Below, piece after piece: positions 25,047 to 61,352 of a stretch of 64,000 bases of DNA. Source of the DNA: Candidatus Parcubacteria bacterium (lineage in GTDB: Bacteria > Patescibacteriota > Patescibacteriia > CAIXNZ01); contig JAPLYG010000001.1 in the NCBI GenBank assembly GCA_026395685.1, positions 7,862 to 71,861 of the forward strand, in the 5' to 3' direction. Below the pieces are notes generated by a model, which worked only from the letters and a program-made list of their open reading frames with translations, had not been told where the DNA came from and searched no databases. The position numbers were made by a program, and so were the translations under genes. The number at the start of each line of letters is the position of its first letter. Positions within the stretch are counted from its first letter, which is position 1.

Positions 25047-25083
25047 TGGGAAAACAAAAAGGGTCCCACGTCGGTGGCACCCT
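25047..25083 (-). terminator. Hairpin plus U-run immediately upstream of the 23962-25029 start (leader attenuator or terminator of an upstream sRNA)
   Basis: Minus strand reads 'GGGTGCCACCGACGTGGGACCC' followed by 'TTTTTGTTTT', about 20 nt before the ATG. Confidence 0.4.
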
Positions 25084-25782
25084 TTCGGGCGCCCAACAAC
25101 CTTTCGGATGTTGACCATTCGCATAGTGCCGATCATGAGACCGTCTTTATGCGAATGGATTTGAGCGACCATGCCCCAAGGAGGAATCCTTGGGGGTTAG
25201 GTCCAAATTGTATGAAATTATTCATATCATACCTTAAAAAATGGTTGCTGTAAAGCGGGGTTACCGACAGTTTATCTACTCGGGTTTCAGCAAAAAGTTA
25301 TCCACAATTTAATTTTTGACTTACAAAATCACAAAATTATAACATATCTGATTTTGCTTAATCTTAGATGAATTTTCATGGTTGACTTACGAGATGTAAT
25401 TATCTGAAAAACACGATTATAAACTTGACGGAACTGCTAGTTAAGCTATAATTAATGTAACAGTTCTTGTGACTAGCTCTTCGAAAACTTAATATCAGCA
25501 ATAAGATATAAGATTTTATAACTAATTAACATTTAAGTTCGGTTTTAAAAAGGAAAAAATCTATAACCCTAATAAAAGGTTTTAGGTTTGAAGTTAAAAT
25601 ATAAGATTTAAAATTAAAATTCTAAAAAAGTTCCAGTCATTTAATATCCCTATAAGATATTAAATTTAATTTTAAACAATCCAGCAATGGGTATATTTTA
25701 ACAACAGACTTAAGGCCTTTTTTTGTTAAAAGCTATCCCCATTGAGGATAGCTTTTTAATTATTTATAATTAATTTTATTTT

Positions 25783-27793: not shown

Positions 27794-27797
27794 TACT

Positions 27798-28205
27798 ATG
27801 AAAGATCTAAAAACTAAAGAGTTATTTCTAGACCAGCTTAAGAAGACCCCAATAATTCAGGTCTGTTGTGAAAAAACTGGCATCAGCAGAGCAACACTTT
27901 ATCGCTGGAAAGCAAAGGATAAGGGTTTTGCTGAAAAATTAGATAAAGCCTTAGGCGAAGGCACTGAATTGGTAAATGATTGCGCTGAAAGCATGTTAAT
28001 TTCAGCTATTAAGGATAAAAACATGACGGCCATCACCTACTGGTTAAAAAATAAGTGTCCTGGATATATGCCTAAGCTGGAATTGTCGGGCAAAGTAAAA
28101 GTGGAAAACGAGGCTCTGTCCGAAGAACAGAAGTCTCTAATCAAGAAAGCCCTTGAGCTTTCTGGCTTAAATATTAATGATCCTAAATATGATAAGTACA
28201 AATAA
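27798..28205 (+). CDS. Phage terminase small subunit-like HTH protein
   Basis: 'KTGISRATLYRWKAKDKGFAEK'. Sits directly upstream of and overlapping the terminase large subunit. Confidence 0.5.
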   Translation: MKDLKTKELFLDQLKKTPIIQVCCEKTGISRATLYRWKAKDKGFAEKLDKALGEGTELVNDCAESMLISAIKDKNMTAITYWLKNKCPGYMPKLELSGKVKVENEALSEEQKSLIKKALELSGLNINDPKYDKYK

Positions 28206-29760: not shown

Positions 29761-29840
29761 TTATCAACAATGCCTCCTGGACTCAGCAAAGCCGTTGCGT
29801 CATCCCTTGTCTTAGGTAATAACTATTAACCTTAAGACCT

Positions 29841-31277: not shown

Positions 31278-31352
31278 TGGTACCGCCTAGGGGAATCGAA
31301 CCCCTGTTACCAGGATGAAAACCTGGTGTCCTAACCACTAGACGAAGGCGGC
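31278..31352 (-). tRNA. tRNA-Glu(UUC), CCA encoded
   Basis: Minus strand reads 'GCCGCCTTCGTCTAGTGGTTAGGACACCAGGTTTTCATCCTGGTAACAGGGGTTCGATTCCCCTAGGCGGTACCA'. Cloverleaf with anticodon loop 'TTTTCAT'. Confidence 0.85.
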
Positions 31353-31356
31353 GTAA

Positions 31357-31611
31357 TTATTTAAGATTAAAACCTAATTTGTTAAGTAACTCTTTACGAA
31401 TTTGATAATTTTTCTTTAATATAAGTTCTATCTTTCTCGCTTCAGTTTTAGTATTATATTCTTCTATATATATTAATTCAAAGGGTATTCTACATTTAGT
31501 TGATTTTGTTTTGCCATTATTATGTTCTTTTAGCCTATTTGTTGGGTTATCACTTATTCCAATATAATAACCTTTATCATTTAAGCTTTGTAAAATATAT
31601 AAATAGTACAT
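31357..31611 (-). CDS. GIY-YIG nuclease-family small protein (YhbQ/UPF0213-like)
   Basis: 'YYLYILQSLNDKGYYIGISDNPTNRLKEHN' (GIY-YIG motif, Arg and Glu) and '...TKTEARKIELILKK'. The ORF-track N-terminus 'MVRTPGF...' is a read-through of the tRNA fragment, so the start is set at the internal Met. Confidence 0.7.
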   Translation of the reverse strand: MYYLYILQSLNDKGYYIGISDNPTNRLKEHNNGKTKSTKCRIPFELIYIEEYNTKTEARKIELILKKNYQIRKELLNKLGFNLK

Positions 31612-31620: not shown

Positions 31621-31694
31621 GGCAGGATGTCCGCCGGAGGCGGATCCGCCTTTGGCGGAAAAACCTGGTGTCCTAACCACTAGACGAAGGCGGC
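31621..31694 (-). repeat. Duplicated 5' half of tRNA-Glu (acceptor, D-arm and anticodon 5' stem) fused to GGATCCGCC palindromic hairpins
   Basis: Minus strand reads 'GCCGCCTTCGTCTAGTGGTTAGGACACCAGGTTTT' then 'TCCGCCAAAGGCGGATCCGCCTCCGGCGGA'. Identical to tRNA-Glu positions 1-35, diverging inside the anticodon loop. Confidence 0.6.
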
Positions 31695-38241: not shown

Positions 38242-40059
38242 TTATTTTGTAAATAAGGCTTCAAAGTCACCGCGTTCCAGGGTTTCTTTTTCCAGCAAGA
38301 CAGAAACTATTTTTTCCAGTTGCACCTTGTTTTTTAGGAGAATATCTTTAGCTGTTTTTTGCGCCTGAGTGATCAGAGCTGAAATTTGATGATCAATCAT
38401 TTCTGATGTTTTTTCCGAATAATCGCGCTGTTCATGTATTTCTTTGCCTAAGAAAATAAGTTCTTCACGTTCTCCAAAGGTACGCGCGCCCAGGGTGTCA
38501 TCCATGCCATATTGGGTAATCAGGCTTTTGGCAAGCTTAGTGGCTTGTTGTAAGTCATTAGAAGCTCCGGTAGTTACTTCGCCAAAAATTTCCTTCTCAG
38601 CTACAAAGCCGCCCAGAAATACTGCTAATTCATCAATAAATTCTGAACGGGGATGTAAATGCTTATCTTCCAGGGGCAGTTTTAAAGTATAACCGGCAGC
38701 ATGGCCGCGGGAAATAATAGAAATTTTTTGTACCGGGTCAACATTTGGAAGCTCATGGGCAACTAAGGCATGGCCGGCTTCATGAAAGGCAGTGATTTTT
38801 CTTTCCTTTTCTGACAAAATGTGGCTTTTTCTTTCAGGTCCCAGCAAGACTTTTTCAATGCTTTCTAAAATATCAAGCTGTTCAATTGATTTTTTATTGC
38901 GTCTGGCCGCCATAATAGCGCCTTCATTCAAAACATTTGCCAAGTCAGCGCCAGAAAAGCCGGGGGTGCGTTCAGCTACTTTGCGTAAATCGACATCAGT
39001 GGAAAAAGGCTTATTTTCCGCATGGACTTTTAATATTTCTTCACGATCTTTAATATCGGGCATATCTAAAACTATGCGTCTGTCAAAACGGCCGGGGCGC
39101 AATAATGCCGGATCCAGAATGTCTGGCCTATTTGTTGCAGCCATAACAATGACATTGATTTTTGTTTCCATGCCATCCATTTCAACAAGAATTTGATTCA
39201 ATGTCTGTTTGCGTTCATCATGAGAGCCTCCCACACCTGCGCCACGCTGGCGACCGACAGCATCGATTTCATCAATGAAAATAATGCAGGGGCTGGATTT
39301 CTTTGCGCGTTTAAATAAATCACGTACTCTGGAAGCGCCTACACCCACAAACATTTCCACAAATTCTGAACCGGAAATAGAAAAGAAGGGAACATTAGCT
39401 TCGCCGGCAACTGCTTTGGCCAATAATGTCTTGCCTGTTCCGGGGGCGCCCATTAAAAGCACGCCTTTGGGAATTTTTGCGCCTAGCTGCAGGAATTTTT
39501 TAGGATTTTGCAGAAATTCAACAACTTCCAGCAGTTCTTCTTTTGATTCTTTACAGCCGGCCACATTTTTAAAGGTAATTTTATCCTTGCCTTTTTGCTT
39601 AAGTTCTCGAGCTTGGCTTTGGCCAAAAGACATGGCCTTGGTATTGGCTCCCTGAACCTGCCGCATCATCAGATAAATAAAAGCGGCGATAATAATAAAC
39701 GGAATTAAAATCGGCAAAATTGTGACTGCCCAAAAGCTCCAGCCTTCATCTTCTTTAACGTCAATCTTTACCTGTTTAATTTTTGCCGGATCAACATTAT
39801 AATTTTTCAATAATGTACTGAGAGAATCCGTGCTTTCTTTTTTGGTTATTTCCTTTTGTCCGTTAAGCAGGGTAATCTCCAGATTGCTGTTTTTGACAAT
39901 TATTTCCTTAACCTCCTGATTTTCAATCTGGCTGATTAATTTTTCCAGTCCGATTTCCGCGGGTTTTTCAGTCTTGGCATTGTAGGTGGAAAATAAGGCG
40001 GCAATAACCAGGAAGATTAGTAAGAAGATAAGAAAGTTTTTGAGGATAATTTTGGACAT
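38242..40059 (-). CDS. ftsH: ATP-dependent zinc metalloprotease FtsH
   Basis: Two N-terminal TM segments. AAA Walker A '[13 protein letters not shown]', Walker B 'IIFIDEID', SRH region. Zn site 'HEAGHAL'. Confidence 0.9.
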
Positions 40060-40158
40060 AGATGATAGATTATAGATAATGGATTATCCCGCGAAGCGGG
40101 AAGCCGCTACGCGGCTTAGATTTTAGTTTAAGATATTTTGCCGAAAAAGTCAATGATT

Positions 40159-40899
40159 CTATTTGGTTTTGCTTACATTCCAAACAACGCGCCAGATAAA
40201 TTTTAAACTGGTTGCTAATTCCTGGCTTTCAATGATCAGGCCATAGCTTTCTTTGGCTGATGAAAGGATTGAAATTTTATTATCATAAATATCAATATTC
40301 ACGAAAAAATCCTTTTCTTCAGTAGGGAAATATCGTAAATCACGTAAAAATTCTTCGCCTCCCTGCCATTCTTTTATCGGTAATTCTTTGCCCCTGATTC
40401 TGATAGCATTTACTTTAATGCCTTTTTCTTTTCTTTTTTTAATCCAGTCACCTAAAAATTTTTTTCCCACTAAATTAACTTCATCCTTGATAGTACCAAA
40501 ATAATATATCTGATCCTTGGTGGTTAATAAGTCTTCATATATATGCTTAATGCCTTCAATTCCTTCATAGTATCTGATCTTTGGTTTTTGCAGTGATTTG
40601 CTGGCTAAAAATTTTAAATCAGGCAAAAGCTGTTTAATGGCTTGAGTCTGTTTTTGCAAAATCAGTTCCAATGATTCCGGGGGAGCGGCATTATAAAGTT
40701 TTCTTTTACCGCTAAAAGTGGCAATGATAAAGCCCTGATGAATCAAAGGTTCAATAAATTCATGAATAGTGGTTCTTTTGACCCCTGATTTAGAAGCTAA
40801 ATCAATAATTGTAGTCGGTCCAAACTCCAAAGCAGCCAGATATACTTTGGCTTCTTTTTCATTTAAGCCTAATTGTTGTAATAAGTCTATTTGTTCCAT
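40159..40899 (-). CDS. TrmB-family transcriptional regulator
   Basis: N-terminal wHTH 'KEAKVYLAALEFGPTTIIDLASKSGVKRTTIHEFI'. C-terminal sensor-like domain. Confidence 0.6.
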   Translation of the reverse strand: MEQIDLLQQLGLNEKEAKVYLAALEFGPTTIIDLASKSGVKRTTIHEFIEPLIHQGFIIATFSGKRKLYNAAPPESLELILQKQTQAIKQLLPDLKFLASKSLQKPKIRYYEGIEGIKHIYEDLLTTKDQIYYFGTIKDEVNLVGKKFLGDWIKKRKEKGIKVNAIRIRGKELPIKEWQGGEEFLRDLRYFPTEEKDFFVNIDIYDNKISILSSAKESYGLIIESQELATSLKFIWRVVWNVSKTK

Positions 40900-41043
40900 A
40901 TGGCTAAATTTGAAGTGTTGACGAAATAACCGTCATATTTAGTATATCATAAGTTTTAGGCTAAGTCAATAGTGTCTATTTTATGGCTAATTGACGATAA
41001 AAATAAGAATTATGAAATTTTTATAACTAAGTGACGTAATACT

Positions 41044-41073
41044 TGACATATTTCTCTAAATGTGCTATACTGT
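41044..41073 (+). promoter_or_regulatory. Sigma70-type promoter (TTGACA-17-TATACT) for 41135-41809
   Basis: 'TTGACATATTTCTCTAAATGTGCTATACTG', followed by RBS 'AAAAGGAGGA'. Confidence 0.6.
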
Positions 41074-41134
41074 TATATCAGGATGAGAAAGGATAGTACT
41101 TAAACAAACGTTCCCAACCCAAAAGGAGGAAGAT

Positions 41135-41809
41135 ATGAAGAAGATGATGATGGCGGCTATGGTTGTTTGCCTGTTGGCTACTTCGGCTAAGGCTGGCCAG
41201 CTTCGGTTGGCAGGCTACTTCGATGTTATCCGGGAGCAGAGAACCATAACGCTTGATGGTTTCTCGCAGCTGTCCACGAAGTGGAGCGCCTGGGGATTCG
41301 TGGACTTTTACACAAATCCGGGAAACCAGAAGCAAGCAGCTGACAATGCTGATGTCCAGACGTTCTGTGGCAAAGGCACTCTGAGCTTCGTTCTCTGGCA
41401 GATTGATCAGAACAACTCTGTCAAACTGACTGGCGAGCTGATTGATTCTTCCTGGGCAAGCTCGCAGTTTCGGCCTGGTATTCAGTGGATGTTCGCCGAC
41501 GATCAGGGCTGGGTCAACTTCAAGATTTTGCCGGTCACGTTTGAACTGGTAACTCCTGAAGAAGAAATCCCGCAGGTCGGAGTGCTGGGCAGCGCCTGGA
41601 ATCTCAACGTGACTGACAAACTCTTCTGGGAAGGGTTCTGGGAAATGAGCTTTAGCTATGAGCAGCAGGATCAGCATTTCCCCTTTATTGCTGAGACTCA
41701 GCTTGGTTACCGGTTATTTGAAAAAGTTAATGTGCTGGTCGAGTACCGGTACAATAACTTTGTGGAAGATGACCACGGCCTCGGACTCGGGGCTGAGATC
41801 GTCTTCTAA
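41135..41809 (+). CDS. Secreted protein with predicted beta-strand-rich body and C-terminal Phe (outer-membrane-barrel-like signature). GC-rich relative to the flanks.
   Basis: Signal peptide 'MKKMMMAAMVVCLLATSAKA'. Alternating hydrophobic pattern. C-terminus 'GLGAEIVF'. Confidence 0.4.
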   Translation: MKKMMMAAMVVCLLATSAKAGQLRLAGYFDVIREQRTITLDGFSQLSTKWSAWGFVDFYTNPGNQKQAADNADVQTFCGKGTLSFVLWQIDQNNSVKLTGELIDSSWASSQFRPGIQWMFADDQGWVNFKILPVTFELVTPEEEIPQVGVLGSAWNLNVTDKLFWEGFWEMSFSYEQQDQHFPFIAETQLGYRLFEKVNVLVEYRYNNFVEDDHGLGLGAEIVF

Positions 41810-41858
41810 CGCAAGGGGAACAGACTTTCTGAAAGTCTGCTCCCCACCTAAATTCAAA

Positions 41859-41887
41859 TCCCGCCCTTAAGTGGACGGGATTTTTTA
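41859..41887 (+). terminator. Rho-independent terminator
   Basis: 'TCCCGCCCTTAAGTGGACGGGA' followed by 'TTTTTT'. Preceded by a second hairpin 'GGGGAACAGACTTTCTGAAAGTCTGCTCCCC' at 41815-41845. Confidence 0.7.
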
Positions 41888-42051
41888 AATGGGTTTATAG
41901 GTAATCGGTTTCGATATTCGTTTCGTTTATCGGAAATCGTTATTGGTAACAAATTCCGTATAACGCATAACGTAACGTTAAACGATACCGAATAACGAAA
42001 AACAAAAAAGAAATCCCTTGGTGGGGATTCCTTTTTTTATATTATTCAATT

Positions 42052-43464
42052 TTATTGCACTGTTAACACCAAATCATTGGAATAAACTCCGCAAGCTCCG
42101 CCCAGATATTCGCAGACTCGGAAATGATAAGTACCTGCGCTCAATCCCTGCCAAACATCGCTTTTAGCGGCGGAGCTGGAAAGATAATGATAATCATCAC
42201 CGGGATAAATCGGATTTATATGTTCAGCTTTAACAATTTTAAAACCTTGCCCGGAGGTAAAACTGGCTGTCCAGTTTAAACTTACGCTATTGCCGTAAAC
42301 TACCGCTGAAGCCGAGATGCTTTTATCGGCAGTTGAAGTTGTTGCTGCTTTGATAATTACTATTACATCATTGGAATAAACTCCGCAGGACCCGCCTAAA
42401 TATTCACAGACACGGAAATGCCAGGTGCCAACTGCTAAGTCAGACCATAAATCTATATTTGCTGACGGGCTGGATAAATAGTGGTATTCATCGCCGGGAT
42501 ATACTGGATTTACATGTTCGGCTTTGACGATCTTAAACCCGCTGGGAGAAGAAATATTTGTAGTCCATTTTATTTTTATGCCGTCAGTAACTGTTTCTGA
42601 CATTGCAGTAATGCTTTTTGTGCCGGTGTTTATTCCGTCTTCGACTATAAATGCCATGTTATCACTGTAGATTCCGCATTTGCCAGCCTGATACTCGCAG
42701 ACGCGGAAATAATAGGTGCCTTTGAATAGTCCTTCCCAAGTATCACTGCGAGCTGAAGGATCTGATAAATAATGATATTCATTGCCAGGATAAACCGGGT
42801 CTGGCTGGTTAGCCCAGACAACTTTAAACCCCTGGTCAGCGCTAATATTGGTGGTTGTCCATTTCAAGTTAACAGTATTGGTGGAAATAGATCCGGTTAA
42901 AGTAATTTTGCTGAGCTGGGAGTCGGTCGGATCTGGCTGGGTTGAAATTAATTTATCCTGATTAATGGAATAAGTCGCAGGGATAGCGGTTAATTCAGGA
43001 TTTTCTAAGGGTTCGCCGATTTTATAATTTATAAAAAATGGATCTGGCACATCATCAATTTTTTTAGACCAATCTGCACCCCATAAATTTTTTGCCAAAG
43101 ATTCGCTGGTTACCCATTTTAAAGTTCCTTCCTTATCAACATAGTAAACTTTGGGATCGGTGGTAATTTTTACGAGTTTAACGCCGGGCTTGTAGGTAAC
43201 ATTGCCGCCAATCGGAATTTCACCCAATAATTCATTACTGATTGCGATTACAGTATCAAAAGTGATAAACCAGGTTTTGTAAGTTTTTTCTGTGGGGAAA
43301 ACATAACGTTTGCCATCTGCGCCATAGTAATAAATACTATCGCTGGAGCCTCTAATCAAAGTTCCGGGGACTAAAGAGGAGGAGATGGTGGCTGAAGCTG
43401 TCAGAGGCAATAACGTTAAGACAAAAAGTCCTATTAGCGCCCCCACTAAAAATTTCTTCAACAT
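42052..43464 (-). CDS. Secreted protein with three tandem ~95-aa Cys-containing repeat domains
   Basis: Signal peptide 'MLKKFLVGALIGLFVLTLLPLTASA'. The repeat 'GFK(I/V)V...PVYPG(D/N)EYHYLS.PSA..D.W..L..GT(Y/W)(Y/H)FRVCEY..G.CG(V/I)YSN' occurs three times. Confidence 0.5.
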   Translation of the reverse strand: MLKKFLVGALIGLFVLTLLPLTASATISSSLVPGTLIRGSSDSIYYYGADGKRYVFPTEKTYKTWFITFDTVIAISNELLGEIPIGGNVTYKPGVKLVKITTDPKVYYVDKEGTLKWVTSESLAKNLWGADWSKKIDDVPDPFFINYKIGEPLENPELTAIPATYSINQDKLISTQPDPTDSQLSKITLTGSISTNTVNLKWTTTNISADQGFKVVWANQPDPVYPGNEYHYLSDPSARSDTWEGLFKGTYYFRVCEYQAGKCGIYSDNMAFIVEDGINTGTKSITAMSETVTDGIKIKWTTNISSPSGFKIVKAEHVNPVYPGDEYHYLSSPSANIDLWSDLAVGTWHFRVCEYLGGSCGVYSNDVIVIIKAATTSTADKSISASAVVYGNSVSLNWTASFTSGQGFKIVKAEHINPIYPGDDYHYLSSSAAKSDVWQGLSAGTYHFRVCEYLGGACGVYSNDLVLTVQ

Positions 43465-43784
43465 AAATTTAGGGTTATTAGTTAGGTTTATACTTTTAGT
43501 TTAGCAGATAAAGTTGGGTTTAGGCAAAACAAATTGTTAATCGTCAATCGGTATCGAAAATCGTTACGTTTATCGTTAATCGTTTGACGAGACGTAATGG
43601 AAAACGAAGCTGAAAAACGTATAACGAGAATGTTTGACAAATATCCCCAAAATGTTAAGTTTAAAGCAAATAAGAAATTGTCTAGGGGGACAGTTTTTTA
43701 TTTTTTAGAGATAAAGGTCTTTGAAAAAAAAGAGTCTTAAGGTATAACAAGGTTAACGATTACGCAAAGAAAGGGAGATGCCAG

Positions 43785-46700
43785 ATGTCTATGTTCTATC
43801 GCATCTATCGTCGGCCGCTACTCTCAACAGCCAGGACTGAAGAATTACAGCAAGTTCTGGCAGAAGTGGTGCCGGAAATTTCTGGGCTGGAAACTGAAAA
43901 AGTATTCTGCCTGGAAACAAAAAGGGAACTGACTGACGAGGAAATGGATCGGCTCAGGTGGCTCTTAGGCGGAGCTGACAGAGCCAAATGTCTGTCAGAC
44001 AGAACTTTTTTCCAAGATCACAGCAATGTGATAGAAATTGGTCCGCGGCTGCATTTTGAAACAGCTAATTCAACCAATGCTGTTTCCATTTGCCAGTCCT
44101 GTGAACTACCTGTGATCAGGCTGGAAGAAGCCAGACGTTACAAATTCATAAGCACTCAAACCTTGGGCAATGGCAAGATCGATCTGATTCTGCCGTTGTT
44201 GCACGACAAAATGACAGAGTGTCCGTATCCCAATCAGCTGACAACTTTTGTCACTGACAAAAAGCCGGAGCCGGTAAAGTATATTCCGGTAATGGAACAG
44301 GGAATGGATGCTTTGGTCAAAGCCAATGCTGAATATGGCACTGGCATGGACAAGGCGGATTTGCAGTACTATTTGTATCTCTTCACTGAAGTTGCCAAAC
44401 GCAATCCCACTGATGTTGAATGGTGCGATCTGGGCAACTGTAATTCTGAACATTCGCGACATCATGTCTTCCGCGCCAAGCTGATTATCGACGGACAGGC
44501 AATGCCCTTCACGCTGATGGATATTATCAAAAGCACGCTGACCAATCTCAGCAACTCTATTATTGCTTTTGATGATAATGCCTCGGCGATTAAAGGTGTG
44601 CCAGTTGGTTTCCTCATTCCTGAAAGACCTGGTTTACCTTCGCCAGTGCGTATGGCCGAACTTTTACTCCATTACGTGCTGACCTGCGAAACGCACAATC
44701 ACCCCTGCTTATGGGCAGCATATCCCGGAGCAGGAACGGGTGGCGGTGGCCGCAGACGCGATAATCAGGGTTTGGGCAGAGGCGGCTTAATTGCTGCCTG
44801 TTCAGCTGGATTTTTTGGCGGCAATCTCAATATTCCGGGCTATCCCCTGGAATGGGAAGATCCAAACTTTGCCTATGATCCGCTGTGCGAAAGCCCGCTG
44901 AAATTTTTCCGCAAAGCTGTTAATGGCGCTTTTGATGACGGCAATCAGTGTGGCGAGCCAGTCATTCTGACTTTCTTCGAGAGCTTTGGCTTGCGTATCG
45001 GTGCCGAACGCTGGGAGTACATCAAGCCGATCATGTTTACCGGTGGCTTTGGCTTCCTTGATGATCGCCATGTTAAAAAACACGAACCTGTTCCTGGCTG
45101 GCTGATTGTCCGAATCGGCGGCAAGGCCCATGAAGTTGGTTTTGGCGGCGGTGCTGCTTCCAGCTTAATGGGTGGTCAGAACATTGCAGCCCTTGATTTC
45201 AAATCAGTGCAGCGCGCTGATGGGGAAATGGCTCGCAAAACCGACCAGGTTATCCGCACTTGCGTCATGAAGGGTGATGATAATCCGATTGAAACGATTC
45301 ATGACCAAGGCGCTGGCGGACCTGGTAATGTGCTTAAAGAAATCATGGCTCCGGCTGGCGGTAGGATTGATATTCGCAACATCATCCTGGGCGATAAAAC
45401 CATGTCACCGGTGGCGATCTGGGTTTCCGAGTTCCAGGAAAATATGGCGATGTTAATCAAGCCAGAGCGCTGGGAAGAATTCAAGGCCATCTGCGACCGG
45501 GAAAAAGTCCCCTGCGCCGTGGTGGGTACGATCACTGGCGACGGCAAAGTCGTGGTTATTGATTCTCAGAACAATACCACTCTCTTTGATCTCAGTCTCC
45601 AGCAGATTTTCGGTGAATATCCTCTGAAAACTTATGAGGATACGCGCCGCAAACTAGAACTTCAGCCGCTTAATTTACCCGAAGATCTGTCAGTGGCTCA
45701 AGCTCTGGAAAAAACTTTCAAGCTGTTACAAGTTGGTTCGCAGGAATGGGCAGTTCACGTGGTTGACCGCAGTGTTACACCGCATGTGGTGCAGCAGCAG
45801 TGTGTCGGCCCCTGGCAATTGCCGATCAACAAATATTCGGTGATTGCGCCCAGCCCCTTCAGTCATACTGGCATGACCAATTCAGTAGGCACTAAACCCA
45901 TCATCGGCTTGATTTCACCGCAAGCCAGCGCCAGAATGTCTGCTGCTGAAGCTTTGTTAAGGCTGATGTTTGTTCCGGTCAGCAGTCGAGATGAAATCAA
46001 AGCATCCATAAACTGGATGCTGGCAGCCAAAGTCCCGGGCGGGATTGCCTGGCTGTACGATGCTGCTGTGGCTTTGCGCGATTTCATGAATAGCATCGGC
46101 ATGGATGCTGATGGCGGCAAAGATTCTTTATCAATGGCTACTAATGCCGGCGGAGAAAGAGTCAAATCGCCCAGCACAGTAGTAGTCAGCACCTATGCTG
46201 CTTGTACGGATTATCGCCAGAGATTGCAGCCTTACCTCAAGAATCCTGGCCAAACCAAACTGTTATTTGTTGATTTGGCTAATGGCAAAACCCGCTTAGG
46301 CGCGAGCGCCTTAGCTCAAGTCTGTGGCCAAGTCGGCAATGACTGTCCTGATGTTGAGAATGTTGATTTAGTCAATCAGGCTTTTGATAGCGTCCAGAAA
46401 TTGCTGGTCGCTGACGGCTTGATTGTCTCTGGCCAGCTGCGCAGTCGTAATGGTCTGATCTCGTCGTTGTGTGAAACAGCCTTTGCCGGCAACTGCGGAC
46501 TGTCAGTTAACATTCAACATCCGACAGCTTCGGCTAAAGAGGTACTGTTTTGCGAAGAGCTGGGTTTTGTCCTGGAATATCTGCCGGAAAACGAAGACGA
46601 CTTGTTGGCAGCGTTTGCCGAAGCCGGTCTTTCGAAGCATATCCAACAGATCGGAGTAACCACTACGGATAAGCAAATCATTATTCGTTTTAATGGGGAA

Positions 46701-47684
46701 CCGATCTTCAATGAACCGAGTGATCTCTGGCTACAAAAATGGCGGGAAACATCTTTCCGGATGAAAGCCTTGCGTTCAGTCAAAGCAGTCGTGGCTCAAG
46801 AAAGAGCCAATATTGCCAAAGGCAACGGCCTGGAATTTTCTCTCAGCTTTAATCCGGATTTAATTACTCCGGTGAAGACTGATTTTCCCGGCAAACCGAA
46901 AGTGGCCATTATCCGCGATGAAGGCACTAACAGCCAAGAAGAAATGAAAGTCGCGTTTTACTTGGCTGGCTTTGAACCCTATGATGTCACCATCACTGAT
47001 CTGGCCAGCGGAAAAGTCAGTTTGCGCGATTTTCGCGGCGTCGCTTTCCCAGGCGGATTCAGTTATAAAGATGTCCTGGGTTCAGCTGTTGGCTGGGCCG
47101 GAGTAATCAAGTTTAATCCGGTTCTTGTCAAAGAATTTTTAGCCTTTTTTCAACGGACAGATACTTTCAGCGTGGGCATCTGTAATGGCGATCAGGTAGA
47201 AATCTGGCTGGGAGTGCTTTATCCCGAGCTTGATGAATTGTCGCAGCCCAGGATGTACTTCAACTTGAGTGAATCTTTTGAATCGCGATTTGTCAGAGTG
47301 AGCATCTTGGATTCTCCAGCAATCATGTTGAAGGGTATGGCTGGATCAATTCTGGGAATCCACGTAGCTCATGGCGAAGGTCGTTTTTACTTCCCGGATG
47401 ACCAAATCTATCGTAGTATCCTATCCAAAGGTTTGGCGCCGGTAAGGTACATTGATCCGAGCGATCAACCGACTGAGGATTATCCCTTCAATCCCAATGG
47501 ATCTCCTGCGGGTATTGCGGCTTTGTGTTCTGCTGACGGCAGGCATCTTGCTATTATGCCGCATCCAGAACGTACAGTCCTAGTCAGGCAGTGGCCTTAT
47601 TTGCCCTACGGGACAAATTGGGAAAACTCGCCCTGGCTGAAAATGTTCCAGAACGCCTATCAGTGGTGTATGGAACAGAAGTAA
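43785..47684 (+). CDS. purL: Phosphoribosylformylglycinamidine synthase, single-chain large form (PurL/FGAM synthase)
   Basis: 1299-aa protein. AIRS-like domains, and a C-terminal class-I glutamine amidotransferase with catalytic 'GICNGDQ' and 'MPHPER'. Confidence 0.9.
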   Translation: MSMFYRIYRRPLLSTARTEELQQVLAEVVPEISGLETEKVFCLETKRELTDEEMDRLRWLLGGADRAKCLSDRTFFQDHSNVIEIGPRLHFETANSTNAVSICQSCELPVIRLEEARRYKFISTQTLGNGKIDLILPLLHDKMTECPYPNQLTTFVTDKKPEPVKYIPVMEQGMDALVKANAEYGTGMDKADLQYYLYLFTEVAKRNPTDVEWCDLGNCNSEHSRHHVFRAKLIIDGQAMPFTLMDIIKSTLTNLSNSIIAFDDNASAIKGVPVGFLIPERPGLPSPVRMAELLLHYVLTCETHNHPCLWAAYPGAGTGGGGRRRDNQGLGRGGLIAACSAGFFGGNLNIPGYPLEWEDPNFAYDPLCESPLKFFRKAVNGAFDDGNQCGEPVILTFFESFGLRIGAERWEYIKPIMFTGGFGFLDDRHVKKHEPVPGWLIVRIGGKAHEVGFGGGAASSLMGGQNIAALDFKSVQRADGEMARKTDQVIRTCVMKGDDNPIETIHDQGAGGPGNVLKEIMAPAGGRIDIRNIILGDKTMSPVAIWVSEFQENMAMLIKPERWEEFKAICDREKVPCAVVGTITGDGKVVVIDSQNNTTLFDLSLQQIFGEYPLKTYEDTRRKLELQPLNLPEDLSVAQALEKTFKLLQVGSQEWAVHVVDRSVTPHVVQQQCVGPWQLPINKYSVIAPSPFSHTGMTNSVGTKPIIGLISPQASARMSAAEALLRLMFVPVSSRDEIKASINWMLAAKVPGGIAWLYDAAVALRDFMNSIGMDADGGKDSLSMATNAGGERVKSPSTVVVSTYAACTDYRQRLQPYLKNPGQTKLLFVDLANGKTRLGASALAQVCGQVGNDCPDVENVDLVNQAFDSVQKLLVADGLIVSGQLRSRNGLISSLCETAFAGNCGLSVNIQHPTASAKEVLFCEELGFVLEYLPENEDDLLAAFAEAGLSKHIQQIGVTTTDKQIIIRFNGEPIFNEPSDLWLQKWRETSFRMKALRSVKAVVAQERANIAKGNGLEFSLSFNPDLITPVKTDFPGKPKVAIIRDEGTNSQEEMKVAFYLAGFEPYDVTITDLASGKVSLRDFRGVAFPGGFSYKDVLGSAVGWAGVIKFNPVLVKEFLAFFQRTDTFSVGICNGDQVEIWLGVLYPELDELSQPRMYFNLSESFESRFVRVSILDSPAIMLKGMAGSILGIHVAHGEGRFYFPDDQIYRSILSKGLAPVRYIDPSDQPTEDYPFNPNGSPAGIAALCSADGRHLAIMPHPERTVLVRQWPYLPYGTNWENSPWLKMFQNAYQWCMEQK

Positions 47685-47691
47685 TCCAAAC

Positions 47692-47724
47692 GCCCCGTTG
47701 TCGCAAGACGCGGGGCTTTTTTTA
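47692..47724 (+). terminator. Rho-independent terminator after purL
   Basis: 'GCCCCGTTGTCGCAAGACGCGGGGC' followed by 'TTTTTTT'. Confidence 0.8.
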
Positions 47725-47924
47725 ATTGGTGAGTAGTGTGTTGGTTAGGAAGCTAGTAGGTGGAGGTTTCATGGGTTAGGTGTTGAATAAATACTTTACC
47801 TTAACACTCTGCACTTACTAGCATCTTTACCTTTGCACTTAACCGTATGTTTGACAATTTTCAACATTTTTAATATGGTAAATACGAATTGGTTACAAGT
47901 TTGTACTTTAACAAGGAGAATATT

Positions 47925-49043
47925 ATGGAAGAACAAAAGGGAATGACGTATCAGGGAACCGGCGTAAACTACGATGACATGGATCCATTTAAAAGAGAGG
48001 CGCAACAAGCCGGACTGAAAACAGCCGGTAACATCAGCCGTCTTAATATGACGGAATTTGCTCCGAGCCGGGGCGAGAGCGCGTATCTGGTTGATTGCGG
48101 GAATCATTTTTTGGCGCAGGTCGTGGAAGGCTTGGGTACCAAGAATATTGTGGCCGAAGCCATGCAACAGCTAACCGGTGAATTGCATTTTGATTTAATT
48201 GCCCAGTGCTGCATGGCCATGATCGTCAATGACCTGATTACTGTCGGCGCCTTGCCCATTTCCGCGGCCATGTATTTGGCAGTGGGTGATTCAGCCTGGT
48301 TCAAAGACGAAGCGCGCGCCAAGAATCTGATTGACGGCTGGATGCATGCCTGCAATAAGTCTGGCTGTACCTGGGGTGGTGGGGAAACACCCACACTCAA
48401 AGGCATTATCAATCCAAATACAATCGATCTGAGTGGCGCGGCCATGGGCATCATTAGGAATAAACAGCATTTGATTACTGGCGAGAAGATCAAGCATGGC
48501 GATGTCATCATCGTTTTTGCCAGTTCCGGAATTCATGCCAATGGTCTGACTCTGGCCAGACGGATCGCTGAAAAGTTGTCCCAAGGCTACTTAACTCCAA
48601 TTGATTATATTGGCACGACATATGGCCGAGCCTTGCTGGATCCGACCGTGATCTATGTTCCTATCATCGAAGATTGTCAGTATTGGAATGTGAACGTACA
48701 CTACGCAGTCAATATCACAGGCCATGGTTGGCGCAAGCTGATGCGTAGTCAGGAACCTTTTATTTATGTCATTGAAACAATTCCTGATCCTCAGCCGGTT
48801 TTCCAGATCATGCAAAAGCATGGTCCGGTGGACGACGAAGAAGCCTATGGCAACCTGAATATGGGCGGTGGCTTTGCCATCTTTGTGTCAGAAAAGGATG
48901 TGCCTCTGGTCGTTGATATTTCCAAGGCTACCAACATACCGATTGTCGGCTACGGACATATTGAAAAAAGTGGTGAGGACAAGAAAGTCATCATTGAACC
49001 CAAAGGCATTACCTTTGATAGTAAAAGTCTGCAGGTTCGCTGA
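47925..49043 (+). CDS. purM: PurM-family protein (AIR synthetase / AIR-synthase-related)
   Basis: RBS 'AAGGAGAA' before the ATG at 47925. 'VEGLGTKN', 'MIVNDLITVGALPI', 'SGCTWGGGETPTLKG' and 'GDVIIVFASSGIHANGLTL' align with PurM motifs. Confidence 0.7.
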   Translation: MEEQKGMTYQGTGVNYDDMDPFKREAQQAGLKTAGNISRLNMTEFAPSRGESAYLVDCGNHFLAQVVEGLGTKNIVAEAMQQLTGELHFDLIAQCCMAMIVNDLITVGALPISAAMYLAVGDSAWFKDEARAKNLIDGWMHACNKSGCTWGGGETPTLKGIINPNTIDLSGAAMGIIRNKQHLITGEKIKHGDVIIVFASSGIHANGLTLARRIAEKLSQGYLTPIDYIGTTYGRALLDPTVIYVPIIEDCQYWNVNVHYAVNITGHGWRKLMRSQEPFIYVIETIPDPQPVFQIMQKHGPVDDEEAYGNLNMGGGFAIFVSEKDVPLVVDISKATNIPIVGYGHIEKSGEDKKVIIEPKGITFDSKSLQVR

Positions 49044-49283
49044 TTTGATTTTTAAAGGGATTCGTGGAAACGCGGGTCCCTTTTTCTAATTGTCAAAAAG
49101 GTTAGGGTTAGGATGTTGATAGGTGTAAAGTGCTTGGGTTAGGTGACCTTGCCCTGCCTGCCAATAGGAAGTAGACAGGCTAAACACTCCACTCTTAATA
49201 TCGTCTTTACCATTACACCTAACTCTTGTTTGACAAAATATAGATTTTATTATAATTTCAAGCTAGAAAAGAAGGGTCAAAAC

Positions 49284-49808
49284 ATGGAGATTAATGAAAG
49301 TCTAGCTAAGCAGATTCAGGCAAGAACTCGTGAATTTCAGAAAAAACGTCTCTGGAAGAAATCCACGGCCATTGCAAAGACATTTGGCAGAAAAGATGTC
49401 CGTGAAGCCAGCGATCATACGACTGTTACGTATGATTTTAATCAGAATCGATGCTGTGGTTTTTTCAGGGTCTACCTGTCAAATTTTGTTTACGGCGGAT
49501 ACTATGTGAATGTAGAAATCGCGGGCAAAACGGTTTTGTCCGCCCAGGAAACATTCGCTGATTCTGAAGACGCCAAACATTTTCCTTTCCAGATCTGCAA
49601 GTATGGGAGCAGTTTGCTCTTTGTTAAGATTTACATCCCGGGCGATTGGGAAAAACTTATGGATATGAAGTTTATGCGCAAGGAAGTAAAAGCCCTGGAA
49701 GCTGCAGAACAGGGCAGGCTTAAAGAACATGACGAAACAGCGGAAAAATCAAGACCCCTTACCAGGGAGGAACAAGAATTAGCCGCGAATTTCGGCATCA
49801 AAGGCTAA
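49284..49808 (+). CDS. Hypothetical protein (start at ATG 49284 preferred over the extended ORF start 49143)
   Basis: A repeat element and a TTGACA/TATAAT promoter occupy 49150-49260. No known motif. Confidence 0.4.
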   Translation: MEINESLAKQIQARTREFQKKRLWKKSTAIAKTFGRKDVREASDHTTVTYDFNQNRCCGFFRVYLSNFVYGGYYVNVEIAGKTVLSAQETFADSEDAKHFPFQICKYGSSLLFVKIYIPGDWEKLMDMKFMRKEVKALEAAEQGRLKEHDETAEKSRPLTREEQELAANFGIKG

Positions 49809-49815
49809 AAATTAT

Positions 49816-49844
49816 GCCCGCATCTTCGGATGCGGGTTTTTTTA
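49816..49844 (+). terminator. Rho-independent terminator
   Basis: 'GCCCGCATCTTCGGATGCGGG' followed by 'TTTTTTT'. Confidence 0.8.
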
Positions 49845-50054
49845 TTTGTTGTTAGTGAATCGGTATCGATAATCGTTTCGTTTATCGTTAATCGTTTGAC
49901 GTGACGTATATAGTACAACGTTCAACGTAACCTGCCTGTCGGCAGACAGGCTAAACACTCCACTCTTACCAGCATCATTACCATTACACCTTGCCTTTAA
50001 ATAAAAATACCCTCGTGTTCCGAAGGTATTTTTAAGTAATTTGGCTGTCTGAGT

Positions 50055-50372
50055 TTACCATGACAATACGCTAAGAATTAATTTTTTCCAGCTGGGTTTT
50101 CTTTTATAGCGTTTAAATTTGCGTTCTGCTTTTTCAATAAGCTGGAAATAGTAAGTAGAACTCATTGTCCCCAAAACACAGCCCAGAGCATATGCCAGAA
50201 TAATACTCCAATTAGTAATGTCTGAAATGATGGCTTCAATAATATAGTACCAGACAATAATTTCAATCAGAGTAATTGCGCCGCTGGCCCAGACTTGGCT
50301 TTTATTGACCACCTTGGTCCAGATAGTGCAAATTATCATTTCAGCCAGGCCGATTAGAAAAAAGGAAATCAT
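50055..50372 (-). CDS. Small membrane protein (hypothetical)
   Basis: Three hydrophobic helices. Basic C-terminus 'KFKRYKRKPSWKK'. Confidence 0.35.
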   Translation of the reverse strand: MISFFLIGLAEMIICTIWTKVVNKSQVWASGAITLIEIIVWYYIIEAIISDITNWSIILAYALGCVLGTMSSTYYFQLIEKAERKFKRYKRKPSWKKLILSVLSW

Positions 50373-50622
50373 AGGTGTGGGGGATTAAAAATTAGATTAA
50401 ATATTATAGCCAGAATCTATAATCGTAAAAGCTAACTATTTTGATATTATGAGATTTTGGCTAAGGTCCGACCTTTGGTAAGAGCAATTTAAGGCGCTTT
50501 TGTGTGTTGCCTATTTTAGCAAATTTCAGGTAATGTGTCAAAAGTATCTTGTCAGGAGCGTCTGACATTCTTTAGCTAAAAAAGGCAGCTTAGTGAGCCG
50601 CCTTTTTTGCTGTAAATTTATA

Positions 50623-53600
50623 TTAGCGCGGTATATTTACATTGCCTTTTAGCCTGATTCTAGCAATAACGCCTCTGCCATTATTTTTTTCATCTTTTTC
50701 TAAAATTAATTCCCAATTTTTGCGGGCTTCAGGCGTTTCAGCATTAAAAAAGAGGGTTGGTATTTTGCTGTTGGGCACAAAAATTTTATACCAGGATACT
50801 TTGACTTCAGCTCCTGCATCTAAAATAGATATATCCTCAATTGGGAAAGAATTAAGGTTAAGCCTGTTTAAAAGGATCAGCGCATTTTCATTAAAATATT
50901 CCCCATTCCTAACGATTTGCCTGTTGGGAGGAAGTTGTCCGGCCAGAATTCTTTTGACATAATTATTATCGCCATAGTCAATTTTCTCGTTGGCCCCAAT
51001 AAGATTTTTCATAAAGGTTTGATCATTCAGCAGGTTTTTAGTAAATGCTTCAACGTCAGAATCAACCAGAGTTAGAATCTCCAGGACTACAGGAGTAAAT
51101 TCATTCAGCTTTGCTTCTAGAATCTGCTTAACCTCTTGAGGATGATTTTTGACATGATGCTGTAAAAATTTGCCTGTCAAAGGAAAATAAATTTGGGCAA
51201 ATTCTTTGGCTTCTTCAAAATTTTCAGCTTCTCCTAACTTTTCAAATACTTCACTATTAAGAAAATGATTTATATGGTTCTCAAGCTCATTTTTAAAGAT
51301 GCCTGCCAACTCAGTTAAAAATGTAATTTCTTTGGCAGAAAGCGATTTGTCCCTGATAACTTCTGCCAATTGGCCTTCTCTTTTCTTGAGATTTTTCAGC
51401 TTGTTCCTGATTATTTCCAGCTGTTTTTCTAGCGGAAGATTGCGCAGCCACGGACTGGCAATATTGAAATTTCTATTGGCTAAGGCAATTATAAATTCCT
51501 GATCTTTTCCCAAATCTGTACCTTTTGAAATCAAATCTTTGATCTCATCTTGTTTTTTTAATATTTCATCAATTTGCCTCAGGTCTTTTAGTGAGTTTAA
51601 TTCAGTAAAGATCAGCCTTTTTTGTTTTGTCGCTTCCACTAAGGGCAAGCCAAAATTAGGATTTTTTTCCACCAATTTCTCAAAAAATTGTAAGTTGTCA
51701 GGATTTTGCAGCCAGCTGGAATTGTAATTTAGGAGTTTTTCTAGCTGGCTTGTTTTGTCAAAATTTTCCTTTATAATTTCACGCAGTTCTGCCTGGCTGT
51801 TAGCATCGTCAAACAGCATATTGATATAAACAATTGCAGAATCAAAGTCTTTTTTTGCCATTTTTCTGACTTCGGCAGCATCTTCAAGAATAATTCCTTT
51901 TACGTTTTCCATAATTAACCTGGAATTGGTGCCACGTCCGGCTAACGCTTCCTTGAGAAACCTTTTTTGATCTTCCGGCGTTAAATATTTTAGATATTTC
52001 AACGCCAATGAGAAGCTAAGGTCTGCCAATTTGTTCATTATTTCAAGGTCGTCACAAATCTTTGGATTGCTTTTTAGAAAAGATTCAAGATCAAGCATCT
52101 CCGGGTGGATAAGGTATTCTTTAACAGATAAAATTATTTTCTTCTGGATTTCTTTATCTTTAGTTATTCCCAGGGCTAAGGCAAAATGATGATAAGCAAT
52201 TTCTCCAATGATATTCCTATTACTTAAATACTCTGGCTTAATTTCTAAAATTTTCTTTATATCACTTTCAGACAAATCTTGTATTTTTTTTATAATAATG
52301 TCCTCTAAGTTTGTAGCGCCGATTTGTGCTGGTAAGTCTTTCAGATAGGGAATTAAAAGAGAAAAATTATATCTTCTTACAGCTTGCAATAGTTGCTGAT
52401 CAGCAAGCAGTTCTTTGTTTCTGGCAATAAGGTCATTAAAAATTTCAATAGAAGCGGTAGAAGCAGTGCCGAATTTAATGTAGGTTATAACAACTTCCCT
52501 TTTTTCCTCATCAGTCAACTGCGGCAGCAACAGATCTTTATAGTAACTTATTTTTTCCTTAAGTGATGTCTTAATTTGGGGGACATCCAGCAAGTCAGGC
52601 CTTGCTTTTAAAAATTGTTCGATTTTATAAACATAATTATCTCCTCCGCTGACTGGTACGCCGTGATGAAATAATATTTTTTCCATAATAGCAATCTGGG
52701 TTTCTTCATCAACCTTGTCTGCAAATTTAAAAAATATTTCCGGGTTTTTTTCAGCAATTAATCGGCCGAAAGCTTCATTCTTTAAAAAATTCGGATATTG
52801 ACTTAAAATTTCGTCTAACTTATTGATTCTTTCCGGACTTTTAAAATTTATATTGGCAGCTTTTTCAAGATAATGTAATATCCTTTGCTTTTTTTGGTTT
52901 TCATCAGATAAAAGACTGGGATCAACTTCTATAATAGCTTTCAAGGCAAAAAAGTTTTTATCAATAAGCTCTGTCAGAAATCCCTGCTCTGCTCCCAATT
53001 TTGTTACTTTTGCTAAAGTCGTGAGAATTCTTGGAAGCGCATACTCTGATTTACAATTTAGAGCTAAAAATTTTAATAATTCTTTACCGCTCACGGTATA
53101 TTGCCGGGATATCAAGGCGTTAATAATGTCTACTTTGCCGGTCAGCAATTTTTTTATTTCCTCGCCATCTGTCAGCTCACGACAAATTGACAGAATAATA
53201 TGATCATAGGCTATTCTGGCAAAAGTATGCTTTTTTGTCGTGTCTTTTCTTTTTTTACCTATTCTATATACTTCCCATTCTTCCCAGTCATTATTGGAGC
53301 TCCTTTTATACTGAAGAAGTAAAATCAGTATTTTAGGCTTGGAAAGGTTATGTGTCTTGGAAATTTGTTTAATCAGCTTGTCTAAATTATCCGTATCAAA
53401 CTGATCAACGCCTGGTTTGCTGACTTTGTTTACCAGTTCTTCGTATTGTTCTCCGACCATTTTTCTCAGCAGTTTATCTTGTTTTTCCTGATCCATCTTT
53501 TCCCCCAGAATTTCTGTTCTAAAGCGAAAAATTCGATGAACAAAGCCCGGATCCGAAGTTATTGTATCTGAAAGTTTTACGAAAAGATCATTTAATTTAC

Positions 53601-59528: not shown

Positions 59529-59587
59529 CGTGTGTCCCCGCTAGGAATCTCCCGCGAAGCAGGATCCGCCTCTGGCGGAGAACCTTG
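59529..59587 (-). repeat. GGATCCGCC-hairpin element plus a duplicated 3' end of tRNA-Arg
   Basis: Minus strand immediately 3' of tRNA-Arg reads 'TCCGCCAGAGGCGGATCC...', then 'TTCCTAGCGGGGACAC', a repeat of the tRNA T-stem and acceptor 3' strand. Confidence 0.55.
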
Positions 59588-59659
59588 TGTCCCCGCTAGG
59601 AATCGAACCTAGATCTAAAGCTTAGAAGGCTTTCGTTCTATCCATTGAACTACAGGGAC
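59588..59659 (-). tRNA. tRNA-Arg(UCU). CCA not encoded.
   Basis: Minus strand reads 'GTCCCTGTAGTTCAATGGATAGAACGAAAGCCTTCTAAGCTTTAGATCTAGGTTCGATTCCTAGCGGGGACA'. Anticodon loop 'CTTCTAA'. Confidence 0.8.
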
Positions 59660-59679: not shown

Positions 59680-59730
59680 CCATTGTCCCGCGGCGCGGGA
59701 TCCGCCTCCGGCGGAAACTACAGGGACGAA
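59680..59730 (-). repeat. tRNA-Arg 5' fragment interrupted by GGATCCGCC-hairpin element
   Basis: Minus strand reads 'GTCCCTGTAGTT' (tRNA-Arg positions 1-12), then 'TCCGCCGGAGGCGGATCCCGCGCCGCGGGA', then 'CAATGGA' (D-loop). Confidence 0.55.
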
Positions 59731-60413: not shown

Positions 60414-61352
60414 TTAGCCTTTAGTTTTATGATGAAAATTCTTATAAACTTCGCGCAGTTGCTTATCAGTAATATGAGTATAAATTTGAGTAGTGGTAAT
60501 TGATGAATGTCCCAGCATCATCTGGACTGAACGGATATCAGCGCCGTTTTGGAGCAGATCCGTGGCAAAGGAATGGCGCAACACATGGGGAGTAATTTTT
60601 TTGGTAATGCCGGCAATCTTGGCGCATTTTTGGACGATCCTTTGAACTGACCGCGGAGTTAAGCCTTTATCTTCTTTGGTTTTATTGCGTTTTATTCCGG
60701 CTTTGTCATGATTGGTAAATAAATAGGCGGACATATCTTTGCGGGCATCACAATATTTTTTTATCCAGTGTTTGGCCTGGTTGGATAAAAAGACGACACG
60801 TAATTTCGAGCCTTTGCCGCGGACCGTGAATTCGTCTTTATTGAGGTTGATTGCCTCTTTTTTCAAGCCGGCTAATTCAGAAACACGCAATCCGGTACAA
60901 AATAAAGTTTCCAGAATTGCTTTGTCGCGCAGTTGTAATATTTCCGGCTGATCAATTTTAAAAGGCGCTTCCAGAAAGTTTTGCAAATCAGAGCCTTCCA
61001 AAAATTCGATCTGGCGTTCGGGCATTTTGGCTAGTTCAATTTTTTCCGGAGCTAAAGTTTTAATATCCTGTTTGGCTAAATACTTTAAAAAAGCGCGCAA
61101 GGCGATCAGATGATAATTCTGAGTATTTTTTTTCAGCGGCGAACCAGCCGCATCTGTTTGCCTGTTGAGCCATAAGCGATAATTGCGCACAGAATCCTGG
61201 GTGATTTGTTCTGCGCCGGAAAAACCAGACCAAGCCAAAAAACGGTTGAGATAGAAATGATAATTCTCAATCGTATTGCGCGCCCGGCCTTTTTCAATTT
61301 CGAGGTATTCGAGAAATTGGCGGATTAGGTTTTGGAGATTTGGTGATGGCAT
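60414..61352 (-). CDS. Tyrosine recombinase XerC/XerD family
   Basis: C-terminal catalytic region 'RHSFATDLLQNGADIRSVQMMLGHSSITTTQIYTH' (R..H..R..Y pentad). Confidence 0.85.
   Translation of the reverse strand: MPSPNLQNLIRQFLEYLEIEKGRARNTIENYHFYLNRFLAWSGFSGAEQITQDSVRNYRLWLNRQTDAAGSPLKKNTQNYHLIALRAFLKYLAKQDIKTLAPEKIELAKMPERQIEFLEGSDLQNFLEAPFKIDQPEILQLRDKAILETLFCTGLRVSELAGLKKEAINLNKDEFTVRGKGSKLRVVFLSNQAKHWIKKYCDARKDMSAYLFTNHDKAGIKRNKTKEDKGLTPRSVQRIVQKCAKIAGITKKITPHVLRHSFATDLLQNGADIRSVQMMLGHSSITTTQIYTHITDKQLREVYKNFHHKTKG

Follow-up and report, generated by a model that had tools for sequence, protein, structure and literature searches.

Three related intergenic segments in a 64,000-nucleotide stretch of DNA from a Candidatus Parcubacteria bacterium (contig JAPLYG010000001.1 of assembly GCA_026395685.1; hereafter the window) carry copies, one of them whole and two half-decayed, of an imperfect palindrome built from CpG-centred TCGTTA-like units. 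We favour, with a probability of about 0.6, the interpretation that they belong to a low-copy, dispersed, non-coding and non-autonomous repeat family resembling miniature inverted-repeat transposable elements (MITEs), enterobacterial repetitive intergenic consensus (ERIC) sequences or REPINs (doublets of repetitive extragenic palindromic, REP, sequences). A repeat is preferred because the copies lie at unrelated intergenic sites, fall into subfamilies, are present in some relatives and missing from others, occur in two unrelated lineages and decay freely. Mobility would be the probable cause of this distribution, and the copies presumably have no dedicated function for the pur genes beside which one of them lies.

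A preliminary description of the region had offered three explanations for these segments: operators for a PurR-like regulator, recombination scars, or a small repeat element. The last option proved correct, as dispersed copies occur in unrelated contexts; indeed, copies unrelated to pur genes or to island borders, which that description had itself named as evidence against a link to the GC-rich pur segment, were found.

Structure of the repeat and its three copies in the window

The repeat search grouped the segments into one family (D2) with three direct copies, at 43534-43596 (the reference), 49846-49908 (89%) and 41891-41953 (68%). The 23-mer CGTTTATCGTTAATCGTTTGACG occurs exactly twice (43567 and 49879; 0.00 expected from 100 shuffles), and the 20-mer AATCGGTATCGANAATCGTT, allowed up to three mismatches, finds exactly the three sites, where shuffles lead one to expect 0.01. 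A hidden Markov model (HMM; nhmmer) built from copies of other genomes only also recovers all of them, with E = 1e-16 for copy 2, 7e-14 for copy 1 and 1e-12 for copy 3. Repeat search, shuffles and independent HMM thus agree that the three-copy repeat is real. The segments lie where they had been placed originally, except that copy 1 is longer (41893-42003), with an inverted second half that makes it a complete palindrome. The full extents of the copies and the signals adjoining them are as follows.

41857..41886, plus strand: terminator-like hairpin with T-run, belonging to the 224-aa gene; its end lies 6 nt ahead of copy 1, and Rfam gives a weak terminator-type match at 41812-41886
41893..42003, plus strand: copy 1 (W1), complete, with both arms and an enlarged, itself symmetric centre (nhmmer and small-word BLAST)
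42004..42037, both strands: bidirectional terminator, immediately after copy 1
43533..43632, plus strand: copy 2 (W2), left arm intact and right arm eroded; orthologous to the copies of contigs L001, L012 and L011
43634..43661, plus strand: purL promoter, abutting copy 2 and read from the sequence (TTGACA 43634-43639, 16-nt spacer, TAAGTT 43656-43661)
49816..49845, plus strand: terminator of the 174-aa open reading frame (ORF), directly before copy 3
49846..49935, plus strand: copy 3 (W3), left arm with a decayed right arm and no hairpin (nhmmer; DNA fold z = +0.43)

On its own, the hexamer ATCGTT shows no enrichment across the window (24 occurrences against 28 expected), and the signal is the ordered array rather than the word. 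All copies of the family are marked by runs of at least five CpGs at intervals of 5-7 bp. Within the window they are found in each repeat copy and as two 5-CpG runs in ORFs (7053 and 60233), with a mean of 0.3 in window shuffles; beyond the family, several sources show scattered runs of 5-6 CpGs only.

The canonical element measures 90-110 bp and contains 13-14 TCGTTA-like units, arranged as six to seven units in direct orientation that recur, inverted, on the far side of a centre near TTAAACGTTTAA. The canonical copies (those labelled L001, L006a and L007) have 14 CpGs, one of which is mutated in L007; their spacing, 7,7,6,7,5,7,7,7,5,7,6,7,7, is perfectly mirror-symmetric, and their centre contains AAACGTTT. 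The left-arm unit reads wwTCGTTAw, with T at position -1 in 84% and T at position +2 in 84% of cases, and CG followed by T-T-A; the heptad-like ATCGTT/AACGAT units noted earlier are therefore genuine. The right arm presents the reverse complement of this unit in a weaker form. Dyad symmetry is pronounced, as 82% of the cells pair on the fixed structure versus 27-41% when the partner is slid, and intact copies fold as DNA much better than shuffled sequences do (z = -5.8 for L012, which has a 21-bp perfect stem, -4.1 for L019b and -3.5 for L007).

Small-word BLAST of the intergenic regions resolves copy 1 into a forward half (41893-41941) and an inverted half (41961-42005). Its CpG spacing is 6,7,5,7,7,[19],7,7,5,7,6,7 and its DNA fold z is -2.0; it is lodged between the terminators of two convergent genes (~41857-41886 and 42004-42037). 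Copy 2, in a divergent region, ends 1-2 nt before the -35 box of purL (TTGACA, 43634-43639), and its right arm has lost two CpGs and suffered 1-nt deletions (DNA fold z = -0.36). Copy 3, behind the terminator of the 174-aa ORF, is again placed between convergent genes. Over 63 nt it matches copy 2 at 89% identity, and the two have a derived TTAATCGTTTGACG variant in common; copy 3 is therefore a local duplicate of a copy 2-type sequence.

Copies in other genomes, their gain and their decay

An initial, stricter pattern (AATCGG...) had no match in genomes or metagenomes. The relaxed pattern TCGGTNTCGANNNTCGTTNCGTTTATCG, which fits all copies, located L004-L007: two contigs of the LacPavin metagenome-assembled genome (MAG), L005 (the same contig as L001) and L006; the sediment metagenome contig L007; and contig L004, from a MAG labelled Pseudomonadota. 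HMM scanning, which covered ~348 kb in total, added a second copy in L006 and then copies in L012, L011 and L019. The copies number three in the window, three in 28 kb of the LacPavin MAG and two in 13 kb of L019, and the more distant relatives L002, L003, L008-L010 and L015-L018 carry no element.

The insertion contexts are diverse. In L007 the copy fills the 97-nt gap from the stop codon of an RNase Y-like gene (rny, assigned from its C-terminal sequence) to the ymdB start codon. The L006a copy takes up the space from an SfLAP-like gene to murJ, and L006b lies between the stop codon and the terminator of recJ. Both the L006a and L007 gaps are of operon type and end at a start codon; at all three sites the flanking genes are on one strand and the copies are co-oriented with them. 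The L004/L019 copies occupy a gap between a hexapeptide-transferase gene and a DUF2007 gene, and the hycI/hypA gap. Their host, with 48% GC and a full hyp cluster, lies outside the candidate phyla radiation (CPR), and the proteins nearest to its HypD bear the names Deltaproteobacteria, Calditrichia, Omnitrophica and Geobacter. Overall, the genes beside the copies have no common function, and pur genes occur only at the purL-upstream copy.

Presence of the element varies between close relatives. L011 and L012 are syntenic with the window over DUF5698, the purM-like gene, purL, the 470-aa-like gene and FtsH, and show no element at the sites of copies 1 and 3; L001 likewise has none at the 3' end of its 473-aa gene. 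The only positionally conserved copy is the one upstream of purL (window, L001, L012 and L011). Alignment of these four regions shows an almost invariant promoter and leader, a fairly conserved left arm and a right arm that is not conserved, and in L011 the copy has shrunk to ~55 nt. In the L004 organism, three samples share an identical copy of the element; L013 and L014, whose HypD is 89% identical to that of this organism, have unrelated sequence at both sites. We note that, at the two L004/L019 repeat sites, L013 contains a ~250-bp insert with long terminal inverted repeats (CCAAATAACAAACCACAAATTACAAAC...; ~13430-13690) and L014 a different short hairpin (~1505-1575). Intergenic sites of this type thus appear to be reused by different small elements.

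Genome-specific subfamilies are also evident. The two L019 copies share a private CGCAACCTAWACCGTAA extension, and W2 and W3 form a second such group through TTAATCGTTTGACG. Left-arm similarity is higher between the paralogues L006a and L007, from different genomes (94%), than between the orthologues W2 and L001 (79%).

Origin of the repeat and alternative explanations

The family displays the dispersed copies, inverted symmetry and presence/absence polymorphism of an interspersed palindromic repeat. The element would spread or duplicate as a non-autonomous unit, in the manner of a MITE, ERIC or REPIN, with recognition perhaps operating through the hairpin or the dyad symmetry, and it may land or survive in intergenic 'safe' places, that is, by terminators, between operon genes or upstream of promoters. 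Copy 1 would then represent a whole element in a dead zone between two convergent terminators. Copy 2 would be an old insertion ahead of the purL promoter that four related genomes received from their common ancestor and that is in the course of losing its right arm, and copy 3 a half-element, duplicated locally from copy 2-type sequence together with a promoter module (D6, described below).

ERIC sequences, also called intergenic repeat units (IRU), are imperfect palindromes of ~127 bp in enterobacteria that lie between genes and are often transcribed. The present elements belong to a similar size class and, like ERIC/IRU, are palindromic over their whole length and not at the ends only. They share with ERIC/IRU an intergenic location that includes the inside of operons, strong similarity between copies at different loci of different species, presence/absence differences between relatives and the lack of a known transposase. 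They differ in their periodic CpG-centred TCGTTA units, in their low copy number and in their hosts, which are Parcubacteria and one unrelated uncultured bacterium. To our knowledge the two families have no sequence relationship, a distinction made by description and not by alignment. Short length, non-coding nature, inverted symmetry, dispersal, genome-specific subfamilies and decay are equally typical of MITEs and REPINs, such as the Correia and RUP elements or the REP doublets mobilised by the REP-associated tyrosine transposase RAYT (PMC3116915). The differences are that no target-site duplication, parent insertion sequence or flanked RAYT gene was found for the present family, and that typical REPINs reach far higher copy numbers. 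The sequence family is new and the kind of element already known, the only unusual features being the CpG-heptad construction and the occurrence in two unrelated lineages.

Several observations weigh against a mobile repeat. Neither a transposase nor a parent element with matching ends was found in the ~348 kb examined, and the scanned ORFs of the window include no transposase. The sole Y1 transposase gene seen (Y1_Tnp, L011 19581-20195) has no copy nearby, and no such gene is present in the window. By eye, the flanks of nine copies reveal no consistent target-site duplication; none can be defined because the relatives carry other inserts at both comparable sites, leaving no clean empty site. 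Copy number is low, with three copies in the 64 kb of the window, only two strict matches in the whole LacPavin MAG, and only three loci in 596 Gb of genomes and one in the metagenome set for the strict left-arm pattern; a bursting MITE would be expected to be commoner. Finally, the rigidity of the CpG spacing and the better preservation of the left arm resemble the marks of protein recognition, and in four genomes the copy upstream of purL has stayed in place, in contact with the -35 box.

These last features lead to a second explanation, which we consider unlikely, namely that a small DNA-binding protein polymerises on the 13-14 direct-then-inverted TCGTTA units as on an iteron-type array, forming an operator or architectural site for adjacent promoters, including those of purL and of the divergent 470-aa gene. 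Possible binders are an omega-like or ribbon-helix-helix-like repressor or the neighbouring TrmB-family regulator. The unit consensus does reach beyond CG, the fixed CpG spacing is maintained in different genomes and subfamilies, and the left arm is better kept than the right even in orthologues that were found by synteny and not by pattern. In the window, L001, L012 and L002, no more than a few genes separate purL from a TrmB-family gene, and L011, in which none was seen in 21 kb, has only a remnant element, although this correlation rests on five loci. The omega repressor of pSM19035 recognises 7-bp units, direct and inverted, that act as operators and centromere. The heptad arrays that omega binds provide a mechanistic precedent (PMC9499535, PMC2441792). 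The present elements resemble omega operator/parS arrays in having units of ~7 bp, direct then inverted, and in that one copy stands directly upstream of a promoter. However, the omega unit is WATCACW at a strict 7 bp, whereas here WTCGTTA-like units are spaced by 5-7 bp, and the omega arrays are carried by a plasmid (pSM19035), whereas these elements are chromosomal and dispersed. Furthermore, copies 1 and 3, with convergent terminators on either side, face no promoter, L006b is placed after a stop codon and ahead of a terminator, L006a and L007 occupy operon-type gaps, the neighbouring genes lack a common function, and close relatives without the site evidently dispense with it. A bolder form of this proposal, in which TCGTTA iterons coated by a small DNA-binding protein would constitute a shared architectural, centromere-like or global regulatory site in CPR bacteria and at least one unrelated bacterium, with one copy controlling the divergent promoters of purL and the surface-protein gene, is highly doubtful.

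The PurR-like operator array put forward in the preliminary description is not supported. One copy does stand upstream of purL, and the canonical centre with AAACGTTT recalls PurR operators; the element is, however, six times longer and also lies beside non-pur genes, the other copies flanking rny/ymdB, murJ, recJ and hyp genes. The LacI-type PUR box of E. coli (ACGCAAACGTTTGCGT, up to three mismatches) has no match in the window. A search for the Bacillus PurBox (AWWWCCGAACWWT boxes in pairs) gave eight PurBox-like matches, which is the chance level, none of them in any element. No LacI/PurR-type regulator turned up among the 42 ORFs scanned.

A role at the RNA level is quite improbable. The transcribed element would form a long interrupted hairpin, serving as an RNase III-type processing site or as an mRNA stabiliser that uncouples neighbouring genes; roles in RNA processing or stabilisation are described for ERIC and REP elements. 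Certainly or probably transcribed sites do exist (rny-ymdB, upstream of murJ, hycI-hypA and the recJ 3' untranslated region), the copies L006a, L006b and L007 share the orientation of their flanking genes, and intact copies fold well as RNA (z = -4.6 for L007). Yet covariation across the dyad is no better than in shuffled columns, 94 of 500 shuffles reaching the observed score. G:T mismatches exceed A:C mismatches by 15 to 7, but some copies share ancestry and are not independent, and the strand signal is not convincing. Copies 1 and 3 lie behind terminators and copy 2 upstream of a promoter, for the second L019 copy the better score belongs to the strand opposite to transcription, and Rfam at permissive thresholds (40800-50700) returned no family, only sub-threshold terminator-type matches.

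Recombination or attachment sites are very improbable and largely refuted, both as the borders or scars left by a mobile pur island and as integron-like attC sites belonging to gene cassettes. Copies 1 and 3 form a direct-repeat pair (D5; 71% over 104 nt) on either side of ~8 kb, the genes of the segment are individually equipped with a promoter and a terminator, and the gene content near purL differs between relatives. However, the bracketed genes and their flanks (the 470-aa gene, purL, the purM-like gene, FtsH and DUF5698) occur together in relatives that lack copies 1 and 3. The high GC is the same in all relatives (purL, 49-52%; purM-like gene, 48-49%) and is thus ancestral and gene-specific. 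Other copies lie in housekeeping operons, and no integron integrase is adjacent, the nearest tyrosine recombinase gene being at 60414-61352. The earlier statement that copies sit at the edges of the GC-rich segment holds for copy 3, near the right-hand GC shift at ~50000, and not for copy 1, which lies ~900 bp from the left-hand shift at ~41000. Both attC sites and island borders were rejected on synteny and on the ancestral GC.

Two further candidates were discarded. The TIGR (Tas) guide arrays of CPR bacteria and phages consist of tandem units with box C/D motifs, variable dual spacers and an adjacent Nop-domain gene (PMC12045711); the present elements are single, dispersed and sequence-conserved, without variable spacers or box C/D. 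An origin from a phage or plasmid was rejected, since the 9.4-kb region had no match in a phage collection, the canonical element had no blastn match in plasmids and phages, and pattern scans of viral contigs gave nothing.

For the window itself the outcome is mostly negative, as the repeats define neither a pur regulon nor an island. Descriptions of interspersed repeats in the streamlined CPR/Patescibacteria genomes are very scarce, and our literature search found none. A family shared, with genome-specific subfamilies, by Parcubacteria and a hydrogenase-bearing bacterium unrelated to them would serve as a minor marker of exchanged DNA. It would also call for caution in annotation, as such an element can mimic an operator array beside a metabolic gene.

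Neighbouring genes and other features of the window

The window has the base composition of a low-GC bacterial chromosome (~37% GC), and the genes around the repeats each have their own TTGACA-type promoter and hairpin terminator. The features of this segment, beyond those given above, are the following.

38242-40059, minus strand: FtsH
40159-40899, minus strand: TrmB-family regulator
41135-41809, plus strand: signal-peptide protein of 224 aa
42052-43464, minus strand: secreted protein of 470 aa with three internal repeats
43678..43700, plus strand: leader hairpin (TGTC..GACA) followed by a T-run, conserved, downstream of the purL promoter and outside the repeat
43785-47684, plus strand: purL
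47889-49043, plus strand: AIR-synthase-like (purM-like) gene
49284-49808, plus strand: 174-aa ORF without a Pfam match
49944..49991, plus strand: third copy of the promoter-upstream module D6, directly after copy 3 and with a degenerate promoter only (others at 47793-47840 and 49173-49220)
50055-50372, minus strand: DUF5698

The best match of purL is in the LacPavin Parcubacteria MAG GCA_026395755.1 (95% identity across 58% of the query), and an exact look-up of the window purL product gave no record. A call of 221 aa for the 174-aa ORF takes in an upstream non-coding repeat. No homology links the 224-aa gene to the genes standing before purL in L001 and L002, the one in L001 being weakly purN-like. 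The 470-aa protein, identical to NTZ49_00230 of a Candidatus Parcubacteria MAG and without a match in Pfam, contains three internal repeats of ~97 aa, each with a terminal CEY..G.CG.YS motif and underlain by DNA repeats (D3) with a period of ~292 nt; its homologues in related genomes, of 567-590 aa, have one repeat more.

The purL promoter is invariant or nearly so in the alignment of four genomes; the consensus promoter scan did not flag it because of its weak -10 hexamer. Counterparts of the promoter and leader (window 43634-43700) are found in L001 at 9131-9200 and, on the minus strand, in L012 at 9770-9840 and L011 at 7945-8010. Across the four genomes the promoter (-10 TAAGTT/TAAATT) and the leader hairpin with its long T-run vary far less than the adjoining repeat. 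The hairpin and T-run may represent a leader attenuator for purine genes. In the relatives this promoter drives a purN-like gene and purL, and the window lacks that upstream gene.

A second repeat family, D6, is a promoter-upstream module that extends from terminator to -35 box, with copies in the window at 47708-47857, 49070-49236 and 49944-49991; copies of it lie ahead of the TTGACA boxes that belong to the purM-like gene and the 174-aa ORF. In L011 the module is duplicated around an extra Hpt-domain gene (2737-2877 and 3733-3867). It seems that additional genes close to purL come with a copy of this module.

Other features of the window lie away from the purL segment. A 30-nt twin GC-hairpin (TCCGCCGGAGGCGGA-TCCGCCTTTGGCGGA) is found next to tRNA genes at 31630-31659, 59550-59579 and 59686-59715, with a weaker version at 40087-40116. 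It adjoins partial tRNA duplicates at tRNA-Glu, of which the 5' 35 nt are repeated exactly (31318-31352 and 31660-31694), and on one side of tRNA-Arg, of which 18 nt of the 3' end are repeated (59530-59547 and 59588-59605). This hairpin has the appearance of a further small insertion element with tRNA genes as its targets. The space from tRNA-Glu to its 35-nt duplicate contains an 84-aa ORF with a GIY-YIG nuclease domain (31357-31611, minus strand; Pfam E = 4e-17). The neighbouring region 12519-31181, beside tRNA-Glu, is probably a mobile or defence island. It encodes an N6 DNA methylase, a SIR2-like and HerA/DUF87 pair (15438-18366), a Cas4/DUF2779 protein, a ParB-fused methylase, a second methylase, a terminase-like protein and a large serine recombinase (29841-31181).

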